From Yuukianura sp. NJ FZ-2021 (lineage: Eukaryota), in the NCBI GenBank assembly GCA_046563655.1, contig CM102290.1, forward strand, positions 7,502,001 through 7,566,000: DNA of 64,000 nt, written 5' to 3'. The notes below the pieces were generated by a model, which saw nothing but the letters and a program-made list of their open reading frames with translations, was not told the origin of the DNA and did no database searches. The first letter of the stretch is position 1. Each line of letters starts with the position of its first letter. Of the stretch, positions 2,334-52,800 are shown in pieces. Made by a program: the position numbers and the translations under genes.

Positions 2334-27104
<24,771 letters not shown>

Positions 27105-31914: not shown

Positions 31915-32152
31915 GTGATTGAAATTCTTTTTATTATATTTTAATATTTCAAAGGTGGTGGCAGTACGTTAAGTTAATATAATAGTAAAAGCATTACAGG
32001 AAAGTCAACCCCAAACATTATTAGGTAAATTATGCATCATCAAAGACTTTTGCTTTGGAATTGAAACAAAATTGCTAATTTTAGAATGAGGATAAGTTTT
32101 TACCCAATTCGGTTTGAGGTCAAGTTTGAGACAATTTATTTGGTGGATTTAG

Positions 32153-34442
32153 AAACGGATTGAATCGGTTGAGAAAGTACCCCAGGAGACCCCCAAGGCC
32201 AAGGCCACAAAAGGGGCGTGGCCACGGGTTTGGTGGCGGAGACTTTCACTATTGGTCCACACCTCCAATTGAGAGCGTACGAGACAGTGGTAGTTCCTAC
32301 GAAATTTATCCAGGGGCTCATGTCCTCGACCACGGAGACATTGGAGACACGATTGAGGAGTACTATCACAATTTGGCCAATCTCCCGGGGTTTATCCAGG
32401 ATTATCAAAGTTCATATCTCCAACCGCCACTTTCTCCGGATCAATCCTTCAAACAGACTCCAATCCCAAATGACAACTCAGAGGATCATTTTCAAAACTA
32501 CTTCCAAATTCAGCCACAAACATACACCGCTGATCATAAGGATCAAGACGACCACAACCAACACTTCTACGACTCACCGCAACCTGCCCCAGAAACATAC
32601 GGAAATCAGGAACTCCCAAAACCTGAGCCTCCTACGCAGCCCAAACCTAATCAACGACGTCCACAACTCCCTACGCATCTGAACCAAGAATCTCTTTCAT
32701 TTCGCCACTTTCCGCAACAGGATGACAATTATGAGGCAGAATCGCCTCCGCAGGATCAGTTTCCAGACAATCCGACGTATCACCAATCTGTAGAACAGTA
32801 TGAACCACCCACGCAGGATCTTGATGAAGGACCCCCTTCACATACGTATCGTCAATCTCCAAATTTGAAACAGTTTGAAAATCCAAAGCATAAATACGCT
32901 GGGCAAGGTCAACGACCCCAATCGCCCCCTATTGAACTTCGCCCTAACACAGCGCACGACAAGCATCCCGATCATCAGCATGACGAACGTCCGGAAGTGT
33001 ACAAAACTTATGAGCGTCCAGAACCTAATGCGCATGACCGACGTCCAAATCGTCCTGCGCATGATGAGCGCCCCGGAGAACATGAAAATCATCAGCGTCC
33101 AGATACTCCTACGCATGAACAACGTCCAGATCCTCCAGATGATGATCAGCACCCAGGTCTATATTCAAATGATAGACGTCCTAAACTTCCTATACAAAAC
33201 CAACGCCCGAAACTTTTAAATTCAAATCCCAATCACCCGGACACTCCCTGGTCAAAAGATCGTCCAGGTTCAAATGAAAATGATCCACCTCTGCCTCCTC
33301 CTAAATCTTTTCTCCGTCCAGAAATATTTGCCCATGGTCAACGTACTTCACCTCTTCAGCGCCCTGACCCTAATGATCACTATCCTCCAGGGCACATGCT
33401 CAAAATGCAACTGAATTATTTATCACAAGCCCATGTAGAGACGCCAGACCCTCAACAAGGTCAAGGTCATCAAGTACCCCCACAGTATTCGCAAGAACCG
33501 CCAGCAGAACAACTTATACATGAGCATCCAGACCCACCCGAGATTAAAGATAATGGCCCAGAACACTGCAATCTTGTTAATGGAAGAATCAAATCCTCCG
33601 GATGCAAAAATGAAATTGGATCGCTTCCTACTTTAGACAAAACACGAGAACTACCACAACTAGTACTGAACCTGTTAGCTCCACTACGCCCCAAACCTAC
33701 TTCTCCGCCGCTTTATCCCGTTAACGTGAATCTTCCTTTCTTTCCCAAAGTCCAGATTGAGCCAATTGAAAACCTTTCGTTGACATTCTCTAATGTTTCA
33801 TCATCCGGAATGTTTCTTCCATCAGACGCTGATTCCTTCGAGAAGAAGTTTCCTCATATTTTCGGGGAATTCAATCCGTTCCCAGCAGTCCACCAAATGT
33901 CAACTCCTAAGCCACGACCAGTTTCCACTTCATCCCCCAAACCGATCTCAACGTCACAGATCCCCACGTTACAATCTCTAACGGAAGCTGTAATGGAGAT
34001 GAATTCCAGTCCTGCACCTAACCTAAACGCAACTTCTACTTCTACTACTACAACAACGACAACTGAAACACCATTGCCAGAGTCAACAACGACCGTTCCT
34101 CCCTCAACGGAAGATCCAGGAAATAAAACTGTGGACACGGACTTAACTGAAGCCGTCATTCCGTCATCTCTGGACATGTCTGCGTCAATATCCACTGAGG
34201 TTCATCTTGACGGTAACCAAAAGGAAAATTTCAAAAGGGCTTTGCTCGATGAGCTAATCGTAAGACTCAGAGCGATGGAGACTCCGCTGCAGGCACGCTC
34301 TGCTTCTGCATTGGGAATGCCACTGGTGAGACGACATGGAAAAACACTGGATTCCGTACATTCTAAATATCCAATGGAAAAGCTGAGAAGAAAGCCAACC
34401 AATATACTAAAATCTGGAATTCGGAAACTTTTTACAGCATAA
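32153..34442 (+). CDS. Large terminal exon of a Pro/Gln/His/Asp-rich low-complexity protein with 9-aa repeats and a Thr-rich mucin-like tract (possibly extracellular/cuticular)
   Basis: 760-codon open frame in AT-rich DNA; AG acceptor at 32151-32152; ~10 imperfect 9-aa units ending (E/Q/R)(R/H)P; TSTSTTTTTTTET tract. No domain recognised. Confidence 0.85.
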
Positions 34443-34865
34443 AAGTTTTTGTTCTCATTAGTTAAATCTACTGCTACAGTTAAGTTGTAAAGTACTTGTA
34501 ATAAATTCCAATCCGGTTGCAACTTCGGCGCATACGCATGTGTAGAAAAAAATCACGGGTTGAGGTCAATCACCTTAGCTTTTTTTTCTGTAATTTGAAT
34601 TTTTCATTCTGCATTTGTTTTTAAGAAATTCAAAATCGCCTTGGCAACCAGTTGTAGGGAAATGTTTACTGTTAAAATTTGTCGTTCATTTTGTTTATAA
34701 ATTCGCCTTTGACCTCCGCGACGACCTCTTCACAAAATCTTTCATTCTTCGTTTGACCTTCGACCGAGCAACATCTCTTGTGCTGTCTTCCGTGAATTTG
34801 GAGTTCATTGACCTTTTGAAACAAACTCTTCGGTTTCTGACTTTCTTTGGTCTCCTCGAAGCAAA

Positions 34866-42462: not shown

Positions 42463-45400
42463 ATGGACACAGTTGTTCTAAGTCCTCATCAACGGTTTGA
42501 CATTCGCAAAAGTTTTCTAAAATCTCTCGTTGAAATTGAGGGAAATGAAAATACTGGAAAAAATCAAGCTGAAGATGGACATCCGTCCAAGCCACCACGC
42601 CAACTTCTTCAATATCTCGTTCGGTACGTTAGACAATTTTGGAATCCATTGTCACTTTCAAACTGTGTTTTAAATTTTCAAAATGCTCATGCTCCGTGCC
42701 GAAACATTTTCGTCTCTCGTTTTTGCTTTTTTTTTTTGAAAACTCCACTTGTCGCACGGTGTTAACTTCAAAAGTCAATTCAAAAAATAAGGTTAATTTA
42801 GTACGAAAATTGAAGGTGTTCGTAAAATATGAATTTTGTTTATTCGTCCACTTGAGACTATCGGGCATTGATTTGTCACTGATACTACGTGATGATGCAA
42901 TGACGTTTTAGAGTTGCTTTCAAATTGATCATCAATTTAGTTCAGGTTTTTGTGTCAAACTATTATTGTGTAAGATTTGGTAACAATTTCGCCAGACATA
43001 GCAGACTCCTTTTCCAGAACTTTTGGAGATTTCAATTTCAATTGTGTTAATGACTTGCCGCACAGCTCGTTCCTATAATTTAAACATTTACTGAATGAGA
43101 CATTTACAGTAAATGAGATTCAGCAGCGAAGTTTTTGTGATCTCCGTTTTCCCCTCTTATTTTGCAATAACTTTTTTGAATTGCAAATTCACCGCATCCG
43201 CACCAAAGTTTGTGCAAAAAGGAGATTCAAACTCGTGAAGAATATTGCAAACGACAGATATCATATTTACTGCTGAGTTTTGTTCAGCCAACATATAAAA
43301 ATAAGGCTCGGTGTCAAAAAGAAGAAAAAAATAGATCAAGTGATCCATGTAATCGGGAAAGGCATGATGACCTTATGACTTTAAATACTTTGACTGACGA
43401 CATACCTCATGACTGACGAAACTGACTGTACTACGCAAGACTATGCTGTTTAAAACGATAAAATTGAAAATTCAATTGATTTGGTTAAAAAGATAATTTT
43501 GACTTACAATTAGGGAAATACTGAGAAATTCCCCCTCTGGGGTAAGATCTCTTCCAAGATGATGCTCGTCATTCGGTCTGGTCCTGGAAAGCGATTTACA
43601 GAACCACTTAAAAATATCCTCAAAATCAGCAGGTATTATTTAAATGCATCTAGTGCAAAAAGAGTTGCAAAAACTATGTCGACAAAATTCCTTTGAGGAG
43701 ACAAAAGTGTCTAGCGACGCATGAGCAAAAAAAAAAAACTTCTTTTTCGAAACCAATATTTGTTTGATCGAAACATCCAAATAATTCTTAGAACTTTTTT
43801 CTAATTTCCAAGTTTTTAGAATATGTTTTTCAAACATTTTTGGATTTCTTTTTAACTAGGATGGGAAGTTTTACTTCGGTTCCAGCTCTACGAGAAGACA
43901 GTCAAGACGTTGATTTTGAAGTTCCACAGCATTGTACACGAGATTCCCTGATTCATCGTTGTCGTTCTGAACTTCCAATGAGTGCACAGCCGATTGCACG
44001 CAATTTTGTAACCGTGAATAACAACAAATCGCTAAACTCTTCCCATCGACTTTCGAATGCTGCTTGGAATGGAATCAAAGATGAAGATGAGCCAAATCAA
44101 AATTTGGCAACGTCTGGGCTTGCCCGACTTTCATTTTTGTCTGAAGGTAAGTTCAAAATTTTTAGAAACTTTTTTAAATTTTCATAAAACTAAATTTTAA
44201 TTTTGTTCTGTAGGGTTTGGTTCTCCCAATGAAACGGAAGAAACGGAAGGTCGTTTCCGCATTCTCACGTGGAACATACTTGCCCAAGGTACATTTTTGC
44301 AATTCTAAAGAAAAGCTAGTTAGCGGAAGCAAAAATTAGCAAAAATCTGGCAACTAAGCCGAAAAAACTATGAATCGCGATAGCTTTTTCTTTTGGGAAT
44401 CATTTTTGTTTTTGTTCATCTTCATATGTAAATCTCTTGTTTTCAGAAAAAGTTAGATTAGGTTGGAAATTTGATTATGTTAGCAAGTACTTCATAAATA
44501 CTAACCAATAATGGACTAATTCTCACTCGTAATATTTGTTTTTGTTTTTTTTAGCCTTGGCTGTGAGTCATGACAATTTTGTTGGACTCCCAGCAGGAAC
44601 TTTGGACTGGAATCTTCGTCGGCTTCACATCCTACATGAAATTATTGCCTACGACCCTGATGTCATTTGTCTCCAGGTAGGGTTAGCACGTTAAGAACAT
44701 TTCCTTTAAAGTTTTGCGGTTAAAATTGGACTAAAAAAACTATTTGTATTTGTTGTCAACAGGAAGTGGACCATTTCAACTTCCTTCGAAGCTCTCTAAA
44801 ACCATTAGGCTACACTGGCGTATTTTGTTCCAAACCTGACTCACCATGCATCTACTTGGAGCAAAACAATGGACCAGACGGATGCGCCCTCTTCTTCCGT
44901 CATGAAAAGTTTGATCTGATCTCTGCCACAAGTCGAATTATTGAAATTTGGAAAATCAAATCCAATCAGGTAAATATTTTTTGGATATTTTGCCTATTTT
45001 TTTCTCATTTCCTGATGGCTTGTTTTGTTTTCCTTCAGGTTTGTATCTTGGCCAACTTGAGACTCCGTGAAACTGGTCAGCAAGTGTCTATTGCGACGAC
45101 GCACCTCAAAGCACGTCACGGTGGCCTCCTGGCTACAATGCGGAATGAGCAGGGAAAAGATCTTGTCAATTTCTTTACATCTTGCGGAACCACCTCTAAA
45201 CCGTTTATTCTTTGCGGAGATTTTAATGCAGTTCCTACAGAACCTGTTGTGACCACACTGAAAAAAAGGTGCGAACCAAACACTATTTAAAAAACTAGCT
45301 TAGCATATTTTGAAATTCAAAATTTTTGCGTGACCATAAAAAAATTAAATACGTTTCTACAGGTTATCGGTCAAAAGTGCTTACTCCAGTTTATACAACG

Positions 45401-47298: not shown

Positions 47299-47914
47299 TC
47301 AGACTTGCTTCTCCTGATCGATAACTACAAAAATGCAAAGTTCAAAATAAGTAAGTTCAAACATTTTCCAAAGATAAATTAAAAACCATATTCATACTTT
47401 CCTTCCACAAGGAAAACTATCAAAAGGCTTGTCCATCAAAGTCAGAGATGGGGTTTGACCTTGAGTGACCTTTTGAAAGTCTAACTTAGCGACGGGAAAG
47501 TATGCAGCCGACGTCAAAATTTTTATTGGAAGTGGTTGTTATACCCTCTTTGGTTGGCAAGGAATTTGATTCCTTGGTTTCCGTATGTTTCAAGTTCTTG
47601 ACATCAAAGTCCTCAACGCCTTTGAGTACTGCCTGTTGGTTCTTCTCAGCCAAAATGTCTTCTTCGCTGGGCAAAACGACCTTGACCTCTGGTTCGGTGT
47701 GCTTCAAGTTCTTGGGATCAAAGTCCTCAATTCCCAACTTGAGCACGGCCTCCTGCGTCTTCTCTTTCTTGATGTCATCCTCGTCAGGCAAAACGACCTT
47801 GACCTCGGTCTCTGTCGACTTCAGTTCAGTCGCCTTGAAGTTCTCGAGCTGATCCTTCAGGGTTTCAGAAACCTTGGGGAGGTCGCCAAGAGCTGGAGCT
47901 TGAGTATCTGCCAT
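47299..47914 (-). CDS. cib: Three-repeat beta-thymosin/WH2 actin-binding protein (ciboulot-like), ~131 aa
   Basis: Exons 47914-47545 and 47324-47299 (VIDQEKQV*). Three repeats with LKSTET, LKHTEP and LKHTET; N-terminal DLPKV. Confidence 0.93.
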
Positions 47915-49445
47915 TTTTAGTTAGTTTTCTGCAATAAAAAAAATAACAAATCATTAATACAAATATGCTCTTTTTTCGTAGAATTTCAGATTTTTGGAGA
48001 CCTAATGTCCTGCAGACGACTTGAGAAAAAGGCTTAATGAAAATTAAGTTGGTGAACTTTGATTTCCATTGAATGTCACTTTGGTGCCTCAAATTAAAAA
48101 AAAAATTTAAAGGAAACAATATCAACCGCAGTATCCGACATAACAGAACGAAGTTCCAACAGAAGCGTGGTTAGAAACCACAGGAATTAACTTCCGTTAA
48201 AAATTACACACGTTTTGTTACCAAAAGCAACTTTTTAAGAATTCCGTTCCTACTTTTCGCAATTTGTATTCATGAATTAAAACTGCGCCAATTTGTAACC
48301 GTGAAACATCAATTTTCTACAAAATGATTGCCAGGCGGAGTTGCCAATTTGCTAAGTTGTGTCTTCTGCATGCTAATAAAAATTTTCCTTGTCCTCAAAT
48401 TCTCTCTTTGATTTTGTGTTCAATTAGGCAATTCTTTCTATGAACTTATGCATTTTTCGAACAAAATTGAGAAAAGAAAAAATAAATTGTTTTTTTTTTA
48501 AATTTATTGCTCAAGATGTTCAACACCTTGTTAGCCCAAAAACTTTGATTTAATAACCCGATGTCTGAAAACATGAAAAACAACTTCACCGCTTCAAACG
48601 GCGCTGCGCCTTTTTAGGGTTAGAAAACTGATGTCAATTTTAAGCAAATTTCGAAATTACGGTGTGTGTTTCAAAAAGACTCTTGGCATCAAGTTACAAT
48701 ATGATTAGTGTTTTTGGTGTTTCTGTCGGCAAAAGTATTCAAGACCAACCGACCAGCATGAAATCCCAAAATTTGCGATGAAATAGTCGAAACTGATTTT
48801 ACGTCGCTGATGTTATGCAACACTTGCGTCATTTTGAAGCTAATTTGAACAAAAATACAACGAAATAGTAAAAATTTGACCAATTTTATATTTCATACTA
48901 AAGTTGAATGGGATAATAGTCGTGCACTAATCTTGATTCATTGTTGCTTGACAGACTTGAAATGGGGTTTAAATTACTTTAAGGTTGCAGTAATACCAAC
49001 GCCCCTCTTGCGGAAAGATTTAATTACTTGGCAGCAGATAGATTTTGATCCTAATCAAATTCATTTCACTGAACTTGGAAATAATGAACATAAAGAGGAG
49101 GGTTTAGAAGATGGGGGCGGTTGGTTTTGCAATGTGTAGATTTCAAATAAATCCGGTCGTAACCCGGAGTATACGAAAGTAGCGAAGCACTTGACCTTTG
49201 ACCCGGAAGGAGTTATTCCGGGATGATATTCAATAGTGAACATCACCGGGTCACTAGGTGTCCCCCGGTGAAAGCAGATCCCGGAAATGTTAAACCGTTT
49301 CCGAGATAATTGCCGCCTACGGCCCGCCAGACAGACAGACAGTGTGGCGTTTGGGAACAGTCCCACTCCCAACCGCCAAGGATAGAGGTGTAGGAATTGG
49401 ACAGTGCCTTTGATGGTAGCCTTCCTACTCTATCCTGTGCAAGTT

Positions 49446-49520
49446 GTGGCCTGGTAGCATAAGGGCAGTGCAGTCTCCCCGGATTGGAGAAAGACGTGGG
49501 TTCGAATCCCACTCGGTCAC
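49446..49520 (+). ncRNA. tRNA-like Pol III cassette in the 5' LTR (not a canonical tRNA)
   Basis: Acceptor-like stem GTGGCC/GGTCAC, D-arm/A-box-like TAGCATAAGGGCAGTGC, stem TCTCC/GGAGA with 7-nt loop CCGGATT, T-arm GTGGG-TTCGAAT-CCCAC (B box 49499-49509), T6 at 49524-49529. Confidence 0.8.
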
Positions 49521-49733
49521 TTATTTTTTCTGCACTATCATCCTTTGTCTCTCAAGCTATGTGAGCCCTGAATCTCACATTTGGTGCCCCGAGGCAGGCG
49601 GCGCCGTGAGGGAGCTTGAGGGGCGGGTGATGTGGCGTTTGGGAACAGTCCCACTCCCAACCGCCAAGGATAGAGGTGTAGGAATTGGACAGTGCCTTTG
49701 ATGGTAGCCTTCCTACTCTATCCTGTGCAAGTT

Positions 49734-49808
49734 GTGGCCTGGTAGCATAAGGGCAGTGCAGTCTCCCCGGATTGGAGAAAGACGTGGGTTCGAATCCCAC
49801 TCGGTCAC
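49734..49808 (+). ncRNA. tRNA-like Pol III cassette in the 3' LTR (second copy)
   Basis: Same sequence as 49446-49520, shifted by 288 bp. Confidence 0.8.
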
Positions 49809-52800
49809 TTATTTTTTCTGCACTATCATCCTTTGTCTCTCAAGCTATGTGAGCCCTGAATCTCACAACAGACAGACAGACAGACAGACAGACAAGGCCA
49901 ATGCATAAAGTAGCTTCGCTACTTAATAAACTAAATTTGCAGAAGCTCCAACTATACAAAATTTATAAGCCCAAATTGCTCCTGCACAAATTATCGTTCC
50001 ATTGTTCCTTCAAAACTTTTCTCCCGTTTACTTGCAGATCTCAAAAACACATTAGTCATGTCCACCATGCCAACTTTCATATGAAGTTTTATTGTGACTG
50101 GCCACTCCCAAATTTCATTTCTAGGAAAAGCAGGTGCTAACTGGAAAGTATTACAAAACAACCAACAAAAAATGTTTTATGAAACGAAGAATTCCAAACG
50201 CATTTCCTTTCTTCTCATAAACAGATGCTAAAGCCTTTCATCAAAATTATTAAAATGCAAAGATGACATACATGCAAAACTAACCCCGTTAAAAGCTACG
50301 TTCATAATTTCATTTAAAATTAGTAATTTTGAACCAAGATTATGAAAGTGGATATTTCCTACCAAAAGTTTGTCAAAACCTTTGCAAAAAAAAAAACGCC
50401 AGTTCCAAAAAAAAATGCAAAAAGTTATGTATGGCTTTTTTAGGAGTATACTGAAACTACAGGTGGTCAAATTTATTAGGCTGTGCAAATTTGCGAAAAG
50501 TTCACGCTAAGGTCATTCTCATATTCCGTGTCTCATGGTGTGACAAGTCAGTTTTTTTTTGCAAAAAAATGGCCAAAAAGTATATAAAACAAAAAACCTC
50601 CATTGTCACATTTGTCATGCATGTGTCACATCACATCCATCACAAACAGAAAAAAGAAACGAAATCAAAATGCTACTCAAGTTTCTTATTGAAATCCCAA
50701 TTTAAAAAAAAGTGACTAGAATTGGAAAGTTGCTGCAAAAATGTCTTTCTAACTGAACATTAGCTTTAGGAGTACCAAAATTGCAGCATCCAAATCTCCA
50801 ATTGTTCAATTTCTCATATCACATCTTACATCCTAAGTCCTCAATTCCCTTTTATGGACTACTGACGCCTTTCACAACGACTTAACAATGACTCCTAACT
50901 CAAATCAACTTCTTTGCTCAATCTGACACATAGTGTCCATCATTTTCAAAGTACTCAGAGGGAAACCATTTTGAATTGGGGATTTAATTTACAAAATCAA
51001 CTTATTACTCAAGACTAGGCTCAGAGCAAGGCGAAGTTCTGTCAAGAGATTTACTCAAAACCAAAATCATAACTGAAACGCCCAGAAGTACGATTCGACA
51101 TAAACAATGCCAAATTTCTCAGAAACCTTTGACCTCAATAATTGTTCTGACTTTAAGGTTTGACCTCATCAAATCCACCTTTGACCTCAATATGTCGAAG
51201 ATTCCAAATAAAACTTACGCTAAGCCTAGTCCTAGTCCTACTTTTGAAGTGACTAAAGACTTGATTTGTGCTCAATTGACATCATTGACGGCGTGTCTCC
51301 ATTCTTCGGCATTGTTTCACTAAAAAGTAGTTTTATGGTACAGGAACAATGGGATGAGAACTAAAAAATTTGATGAAGGGAATAAATTTGTGTATGTTTT
51401 AAGAAAGTGCCTGTGTCATCGGGAAAGAATGGTGACATGACTGGGTTCAGCCTCAGAATTTTTATGAGACAACCCAAATCCAACTGGCAAAATCCCTAGG
51501 TACACACAACTATAAGTCACAGCAGTTCTAAGGTTTCTGTCGTCAACCAAAAAATTCGAAACCTAAATCAACCAGTACTACTGTAAGACAGCATCATCCG
51601 AAAGTCCAAGTGACTCACACCCCCTTAACGCTCTACTTTCTTCACCACATCTGTCTAAAAGCTTCAAGCATTTTCCTGCTTCTGTAACTCTAGCCCTTAA
51701 GCCCCCCATTTTCAACAAAACTAGTCTAACAAACTTCTGCAGTTAATGACTCATGGAAAATTTCCCAAAAACTAAAAACGAAAGAACAAAATTTGAGCGG
51801 GCGCCCCTTATTCTGCATCAATACAAAACCAACCAACGAATATAACATAGTAATTGCGAAGCATTTTGGCAAAAAGTATCTTCAAAGTGCATCTCTGTGC
51901 CTTAGAGTACATGACATCATCTATCTTCGTCTTTGTGCTTCGTCAGTGAACATGCATACTGCGCCAAAAAGTAGGGTTCATGACCTCCAGTCACCCCCTC
52001 CCCCTGCTAGTACGTTCCACCCATTTAAGCTTCAAGTTATAATTGCCGGCAAGAATGAATGACTCATTGTTGCAAAAGAAAGAAATGTGGCTAAATTAGT
52101 GCAAAAATTCAGCACACTGCGCACGAATGAGGTTCGTATTGTACTTTTTCGCAACATTTTGGTAGAAAAAAAAATTTACCGGCACCACCCTCCACTTACT
52201 TTCTGACTAAAAGTGTAAGCCAAAAGATAATAAAATTCCGATAGTCCTTAAGAGCATATCCGGAACCGATTCTGCAAAGTTGTACTAAACTTTGAAGCAA
52301 ACACTTCTTACTTATGACCTTTGCAATTCTAATCGTTTGAGTGGTTTCAAAAAATTAATCTCAAAAAAGTATTCACTCGTAAAAACTTCTAATTTATCCA
52401 AACCTTTCAAGTACTTCAAACTGTATCAAAGTTACAAAAAAAATTTTGACCTGTTGAACTTGACTTGGTTCCAAGAAGTGTCGTAATTTCTAATCACTTA
52501 AGGTGACACATATTCCAGAAGCTTCGGTTTCAAAGTGCATGCCAAAATGCTGGATCATTACAATACAAAAGTCTAAAGCTCGGAAAAGTCTATAATACAG
52601 AATAAAAGTCTATAAAAGTCTGTAATACTATGAAGGAAATAACAAAGCATGCACCACTACCGGCCCCACCCAAAGTCATCCGGATTTGTCTTATCGTTTT
52701 AGCAGCTAACCAGCGCTAAAAAGCCATCACTGGACACACTTGCAGCATACTAAAAGTCACGTATTAGCAGCATTAGCAGCGTCACCCATACAAAATCTAA

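Follow-up and report, generated by a model that had tools for sequence, protein, structure and literature searches.

A probable Helenus-type miniature LTR retrotransposon, with a tRNA-like unit in each long terminal repeat, in DNA of most likely collembolan origin

We describe a 525-bp element found in a 64,000-nucleotide stretch of DNA (contig CM102290.1 of assembly GCA_046563655.1, positions 7,502,001 to 7,566,000 of the forward strand), which is referred to here as the window and in whose coordinates all positions are given. The element is very probably a terminal-repeat retrotransposon in miniature (TRIM) of the Helenus type (TRIMp3), i.e., a retrotransposon with long terminal repeats (LTRs) that is not autonomous, with a degenerate tRNA-derived unit bearing A and B boxes and a run of six T (T6) in each LTR. 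Helenus, or TRIMp3, was described by Kojima (2024, Biology 13:119; PMC10886601), and the element represents a new family of that kind, found in a host group not recorded before and with primer types that are likewise new. The assignment is carried by the anatomy of the element, by a sister subfamily in which the primer-binding site (PBS) appears to have been exchanged, and by the tRNA-like unit itself.

The element consists of two direct repeats of 237 nt that are 100% identical and lie 288 nt apart from start to start, which is far beyond chance. Tandem Repeats Finder (TRF) reports the same pair as 1.8 copies of a 288-nt unit, with a score of 1050. Each repeat begins with TGTG and ends with CACA, giving TG..CA termini, and the 51 nt between them bring the total to 525 bp. 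The element is non-coding, as none of the five stop-to-stop frames overlapping it or its flanks contains a Pfam family. An initial annotation of this DNA had proposed this layout, including a PBS located 2 nt after the 5' LTR, a polypurine tract (PPT) before the 3' LTR, for which we find a purine-rich run, and no coding capacity; all of these were confirmed. The features of the element, all on the plus strand, are the following:

49343 to 49579, plus strand: 5' LTR, 237 nt, TGTG...CACA ends, identical to 49631-49867
49379 to 49436, with its twin at 49667 to 49724, plus strand: imperfect hairpin (14 bp) directly upstream of the tRNA-like unit, a predicted fold
49446 to 49521, plus strand: tRNA-like unit of the 5' LTR (ARAGORN), with the A box at 49455-49465 and the B box at 49499-49509
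49524 to 49529, with its twin at 49812 to 49817, plus strand: T6 run resembling an RNA polymerase III (Pol III) terminator, a putative role
49580 to 49630, plus strand: internal portion, 51 nt, containing only the PBS and the PPT
49582 to 49599, plus strand: PBS resembling the complement of elongator tRNA-Met, 18 nt, beginning 2 nt after the 5' LTR
49616 to 49630 (approximately), plus strand: PPT abutting the 3' LTR, putative from its position and composition
49631 to 49867, plus strand: 3' LTR, 237 nt, twin of 49343-49579
49734 to 49809, plus strand: tRNA-like unit of the 3' LTR (ARAGORN and Rfam), with the B box at 49787-49797

The hairpin upstream of the tRNA-like unit has a predicted energy of -23.6 kcal/mol (z -2.57), and 2 of 200 shuffled sequences fold equally well.

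The PBS, TGGTGCCCCG, starts at 49582 and has no other exact copy in the 64 kb. It agrees at 15 of 18 positions, the first 10 of them contiguous, with the PBS for tRNA-Met given in PMC1084362, the reference being a human rather than a host tRNA. This supports the tRNA-Met(elongator)-like primer proposed initially. Going by our own reading of how tRNAs are numbered, the three mismatches are located in the acceptor stem and the T stem.

We compared public contigs with the region 48743-50467. The runs named below are X1 and X4, which are DNA runs from two organisms, and X6 and X7, which are environmental RNA libraries; all contig figures hold among the matches listed, beyond which there are 218 further loose ends and 410 further contig pieces. 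A variant junction, made of an LTR end, the core, and an LTR start, occurs in X4 as a 108-nt contig over 49552-49659, with 12 other letters and 2 gaps and a depth of 37, compared to 5.35 on the flank. It is also present in X1, with a depth of 463 versus 38 on the flank, and in X7. The differences listed for this variant are concentrated in one place: apart from an indel at 49571, all of them, namely 10 substitutions and a second indel, lie within 49581-49613. The variant PBS agrees at 17 of 18 positions with a Drosophila tRNA-Phe(GAA) probe, as given in bioRxiv 10.1101/699934, here again with a reference (fly) that is not the host. We interpret these contigs as a diverged sister subfamily which keeps the LTR-core-LTR layout and in which the PBS has been replaced as a block, from Met-like to Phe-like. 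A block swap between the complements of two tRNAs is what a working PBS predicts, and an exchange of this kind between two subfamilies is hard to explain otherwise.

This exchange argues strongly against a simple tandem duplication, in which the pair of repeats would have arisen locally by duplication, or as a short satellite with a 288-nt period, from a tRNA-derived short interspersed nuclear element (SINE), with no retrotransposon involved. The 1.8 copies found by TRF are consistent with such an origin, as are the lack of a second copy in the 64-kb window, a target-site duplication (TSD) that cannot be demonstrated, and the presence of tRNA-SINE-like relatives in the genome. However, the TG and the CA that bound the repeated unit are also the exact ends of the array, a tRNA-complementary PBS and a purine tract make up the spacer, and the insertion is precise within a host repeat. 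Moreover, the diverged subfamily shows the layout again, in two organisms, and there the PBS has been exchanged for one complementary to a different tRNA. The initial annotation had itself raised a local tandem duplication as a finding that would speak against its proposal; the sister subfamily counts against it, and we consider this explanation very improbable.

The tRNA-like unit is recognized independently in both LTRs by the Rfam tRNA model (31.4 bits in each, compared to a gathering score of 29), and these two units are the only Rfam matches above threshold in the 64-kb window. The fold of minimum energy for this unit is a cloverleaf. The B box, GGTTCGAATCC, has exact copies at 49499-49509 and 49787-49797, the only two in the window, and an A-box-like sequence, TAGCATAAGGG, lies 44 nt upstream of this box. 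We observe that the B-box core GGTTC is exact in the LTR unit, and that the A box keeps TRGC, without the following Y and without YGG. The YGG of box A is present in 'most' Helenus families (PMC10886601). The ARAGORN and Rfam results, together with the exact B box, agree with the cloverleaf-like cassette with a perfect B box that had been noticed in the middle of the LTR.

Several features suggest that this unit is not a working tRNA. Its anticodon loop, CCGGAUU, has neither U33 nor a purine at position 37, and ARAGORN labels it Ser(gga), yet the unit lacks a long variable arm; the rules for positions 33 and 37 and for the variable arm are textbook knowledge. Because of this loop and of the missing arm, a working tRNA is unlikely, and the unit appears to be a tRNA-derived promoter unit. 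A functional tRNA gene was set aside as an identity on the same grounds and on the Rfam score, which reaches only 31.4 bits. A tRNA-derived SINE (SINE2) was also set aside, since the unit lies 103 nt into an LTR of 237 nt, two copies of which flank a PBS/PPT core. In practical terms, every copy of the element yields two false tRNA gene predictions, which annotators of springtail genomes should mask.

The insertion site gives additional information on the history of the element. It contains the following features, none of them assigned to a strand:

49146 to 49924: nested block, a high-copy repeat of ~250 bp (49146/52-49342 and 49868-49918/24) with the TRIM inside
49328 to 49342: left part of a microsatellite, (CAGA)3.8 by TRF
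49868 to 49894: right part of the microsatellite, (ACAG)6.8 by TRF

A 4-bp ACAG duplication had been reported for this copy. ACAG is indeed found at both ends of the element, but the target itself is an (ACAG)n microsatellite, and because any insertion into such a tract would look ACAG-flanked, the length of the TSD (0, 4, or 8 bp) is unreadable from this copy. The microsatellite in turn belongs to a separate repeat of ~250 bp, since contigs of X1 and X4 show the ends of this repeat and uninterrupted copies of it. In X1, the summed contig depth rises from 38 on the unique flank to ~3800-4400 over 49149-49322, at least six contigs with differing upstream sequence begin at 49146, and at least six pass from 49342 straight into sequence like that of 49890-49924, without the TRIM. 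The nested block is bounded by AATAAA at 49146-49151 and 49925-49930. In X4, a contig of 719 nt has 49145 followed at once by 49925, leaving out 779 nt, and 6 of its letters fit either side; over the 719 letters aligned, this empty-site contig differs at 10 letters and shows no gap. We read this arrangement as a ~250-bp repeat inserted with a 6-bp duplication, into whose (ACAG)n the 525-bp element was then inserted.

Both insertions, that of the ~250-bp repeat and that of the TRIM, are missing at the orthologous site of the related organism X4. The identity of the LTRs and the absence of the nested block in this organism indicate that the TRIM insertion is young, in line with the very recent insertion proposed initially. 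The host repeat, too, was inserted here recently. The family may therefore still be mobile, in which case it would offer a tractable system to study how an LTR element with a Pol III promoter produces a full-length template despite a terminator in its LTR.

The host repeat has many CCGG/CCCGG motifs, a 3'-terminal palindrome, and an internal (ACAG)n tract, and no second copy of it was found elsewhere in the 64-kb window. Its 3' hairpin led us to consider a Helitron, which was rejected for want of a CTRR end, and its 12-nt inverted repeat a miniature inverted-repeat transposable element, which was rejected since one arm lies ~26-31 nt inside the left end.

Further contigs point to other copies of the element. 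A 164-nt contig of X1 (49661-49824, depth 995) has 18 other letters and 2 gaps, and we assign it to a diverged LTR subfamily. A 112-nt contig of the same run, with a depth of 90 (~2x the flank depth) and 1 other letter, fits the two LTRs of this copy. In the RNA libraries, a 256-nt contig of X6 (record 18) covers 49496-49752 with 3 other letters and 1 gap, and a contig of X7 (record 20) lies over 49495-49680. X4, which lacks this insertion, nevertheless contains a 96%-alike LTR piece (record 15, 49656-49758, 4 other letters, 1 gap), implying a close copy elsewhere in that organism. Variant LTR contigs and LTR-core-LTR junction contigs are thus seen in two organisms with summed depths well above those of the unique flanks, none of them with flanks of its own. 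These sequences let us claim no more than that related copies, by order of magnitude some tens, appear to exist and that the layout of LTR, core, and LTR is seen more than once. Within the 64-kb window, no further copy of the element was found.

This genome also contains other repeats in which just the 3' half of the tRNA-like unit is shared, with loose ends before 49470, 49780, and 49784. Aligned at 49470-49532 and 49784-49820, these relatives have the part from the anticodon arm to the T run in common and differ upstream, and one of them carries a canonical A box, TAGCTCAATGG. Probably they represent tRNA-derived SINEs, or else additional LTR families of Helenus.

Two patterns in X7 were considered and set aside. 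Contigs 19 and 21, which cover LTR positions 21-182 and end at the first T of T6, could be taken for products of Pol III termination; this was rejected because both contigs reach 30 nt beyond the outermost variant sites, which is what graph bubbles with 31-letter words would give (that Logan contigs are built from such words is our own reading). In the same library the TRIM has a depth of 8-14 and the host repeat has none, and in the DNA run X1 the host repeat is at least 4x deeper than the LTR. Although this hints at RNA origin, it was not counted as evidence, since it fits equally well with another species that lacks the host repeat.

A number of observations weigh against the identification of the element as a retrotransposon of this type, or at least temper it. 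The cloverleaf energy of the tRNA-like unit is not better than that of shuffled sequence (z -0.70), and both PBS matches rest on human and fly tRNAs, not on host tRNAs. Summed contig depths are not copy numbers. The listed contigs include no second copy that is complete and accompanied by flanks, and neither a TSD of such a copy nor dispersed TG..CA boundaries were seen. Exact-pattern scans with the T-arm/acceptor sequence gave 0 matches in metagenome contigs (34-mer and 24-mer), genome contigs, and viral contigs, and a protein-word search for spurious gene calls on copies, using a 93-aa frame that runs across LTR, core, and LTR, gave no candidate. The 134 window frames scanned, out of 143 of at least 75 aa, contain no family of reverse transcriptases, integrases, or gag proteins; the other nine frames are nested in 32139-34552. 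The T6 run, which begins 3-5 nt past the tRNA-like unit (depending on whether the ARAGORN or the Rfam end is taken), would stop most Pol III transcripts just after the promoter, before the PBS is reached. Finally, none of the listed contigs spans the whole element so as to confirm the assembly of this copy independently.

The last point is also what a mis-assembly would leave behind: a solo LTR or a SINE might have been expanded to two copies at a repeat, and the long unique contigs of X1 indeed stop at 49174 and restart at 49902. Nevertheless, contigs joining an LTR end to the core and the next LTR start are present in four runs, one of them near-identical to the window (X6 record 18, 3 other letters over 256 nt), breaks at repeats are expected for contigs built from short words, and the structure is complete and canonical. 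An assembly artefact is accordingly the least probable of the explanations considered, and we give it hardly any credence.

As a Helenus-type TRIM, the element would depend for its copying on an autonomous LTR element that supplies reverse transcriptase and integrase in trans, and such mobilization by LTR-retrotransposon enzymes follows from its anatomy. A host tRNA, Met-like in this copy, would prime the first strand with its 3' end at the PBS, and the purine tract would be the starting point of the second strand. For animal Helenus elements a Gypsy-type helper is an inference of Kojima (PMC10886601); we infer a Gypsy-like helper for this element as well. The template RNA may be transcribed from the tRNA-like Pol III promoter. 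In that case, Pol III would have to pass the T6 run of the 5' LTR and stop at its twin in the 3' LTR, and the tRNA-like unit would thereby become the R region. Pol III is a plausible source because the A and B boxes are intact and no obvious Pol II signals were seen in the LTR, and we regard it as a possibility somewhat short of an even chance. Pol III transcription is unproven for Helenus too (PMC10886601).

The main competing explanation concerns this template. The tRNA-like unit may be a passenger, left by a SINE or a tRNA that inserted long ago and became fixed in the LTR of a TRIM, with the template produced by Pol II or by read-through from neighbouring genes; the Pol III unit would then yield at most a dead-end RNA of ~80 nt per LTR. 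The position of T6 agrees with this, as Pol III transcripts should end there before the PBS, and so do the X6 (record 18) and X7 (record 20) contigs, which come from RNA libraries and cross T6, the core, and the next LTR, although these contigs are possibly derived from DNA and carry no strand or end information. The repeats sharing only the 3' half of the unit are likewise expected if a SINE was the donor. On the other hand, both boxes are intact in a tRNA that does not work, suggesting that the promoter has been kept, and by reading we see no TATA box and no AATAAA/ATTAAA signal in the LTR. Moreover, Kojima infers a functional Helenus promoter from the conservation of the boxes, and Cassandra is transcribed from its 5S promoter (PMC10886601). 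Taken together, a passenger unit is a serious alternative, which we hold to be less likely than not.

A more far-reaching view of the Helenus-type element is that springtails host an active Helenus lineage with two sibling subfamilies, between which the PBS has switched cleanly from Met to Phe, and in which the tRNA-like unit with T6 acts as the R region. Here the template would come either from Pol III reading through the terminator of its own 5' LTR, or from tRNA-processing enzymes trimming a longer transcript where it forms the tRNA-like structure. As a whole this is unlikely. If true, the switching of primer and helper would have been caught nearly in the act, and the layout of hairpin, tRNA-like part, and T run that the element has in common with wasp Helenus would be a functional module rather than the result of chance.

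The genes of the window indicate the nature of the host. A piece of a nocturnin gene (44724-45287, plus strand) has its highest identities to proteins of springtails: it shares 111 of 151 ungapped positions with the protein of Allacma fusca, and its identities are 58% for Orchesella and 56% for Folsomia, compared to at most 53% for insects; an ostracod tops the list by score, only through a duplicated domain. The thymosin search also points to arthropods. We conclude that the host is most likely a collembolan. The nocturnin frame reads through a stretch of 23 codons that is absent from the Allacma fusca protein and is presumably a short in-frame intron.

A beta-thymosin exon with three repeats (47489-47920, minus strand; Pfam Thymosin, 7e-27) has its start codon ~1.4 kb from the element, so that the nested repeats, including two Pol III-type units, are located in its upstream region. 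Other animal genes of the window include an F-box exon and the exons of a Cys-loop neurotransmitter-gated ion channel (16541-24988, plus strand), with the ligand-binding domain and two pieces of the transmembrane region; the last two exons may be alternative or duplicated. An open frame of 770 codons (32130-34442, plus strand), rich in Pro, Gln, Asp, and His and without a Pfam family, lies in the most GC-rich part of the window and may encode a lineage-specific low-complexity protein.

Among known systems, the element is closest to Helenus. Both have two short TG..CA LTRs with a tRNA-derived A/B-box sequence in each, a tiny interior with PBS and PPT, and no coding sequence, and the 525 bp of the element are inside the published range of 311-1263 bp (PMC10886601). 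By eye, the LTRs of the hymenopteran Torymus geranii families (DataS1) show a short inverted repeat, a tRNA-like part, and then TTATTTTTT, with a T run likewise following the tRNA-like part directly, and the hairpin at 49379-49436 occupies the place corresponding to this inverted repeat. The name Helenus, which the initial annotation had given for tRNA-bearing TRIMs, is correct according to PMC10886601. The degree of novelty had been overstated, as elements of this kind were already reported from six animal phyla, including arthropods (PMC10886601). Among arthropods, only chalcidoid and cynipid wasps have been published as hosts (PMC10886601), and our full-text search of the published literature found no report of Helenus-type elements in springtails, so that, as far as checked, the family is indeed undescribed in this lineage.

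The element nevertheless differs from the published families in several respects. In a word search of the supplement, which is not an alignment, six of seven window-specific words of 10-14 nt were absent from the consensus file, where FASTA line wraps may hide words; the remaining one, the T-arm 14-mer, matches a single fungal Helenus family. No animal family in Table S1 has the dimensions 237/51/525. The fungal Helenus-1_CCin comes close (236/51/523) and was rejected as a relative, since its sequence differs and the window carries animal genes. The Met-like and Phe-like PBSs are outside the primers published for any Helenus group, and the 4-bp TSDs of animal Helenus (PMC10886601) are not demonstrable in an element whose target is a microsatellite.

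Two other kinds of TRIM share part of this organization. Cassandra, a plant TRIM, also has a promoter and a terminator derived from a Pol III gene within each LTR, and its transcription runs from the 5' LTR, where it starts, to the 3' LTR, where it ends, as reported via PMC10886601. As far as this indirect account goes, Cassandra differs in being 5S-derived, in occurring in plants, in its 5-bp TSDs, and in having no sequence relation to the element. PbTRIM of the harvester ant and the bivalve TRIMs show the same miniature LTR-PBS-PPT-LTR layout in invertebrates, whereas no small-RNA gene is present in their LTRs as far as the abstracts tell. The tRNA-derived SINEs (SINE2) have in common with the element a tRNA-like head with A and B boxes, but they are single units mobilized by long interspersed nuclear elements, with tails and duplications of variable length, in contrast to the LTRs, PBS, and PPT found here. 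A SINE inserted into the LTR of a TRIM, as donor of the tRNA part, is the proposed origin of Helenus itself (PMC10886601). The element leaves the known picture of TRIMp3 elements unchanged; it broadens the host range of Helenus/TRIMp3 by a group not listed so far, most likely Collembola, and Met-like and Phe-like primers join those already described.

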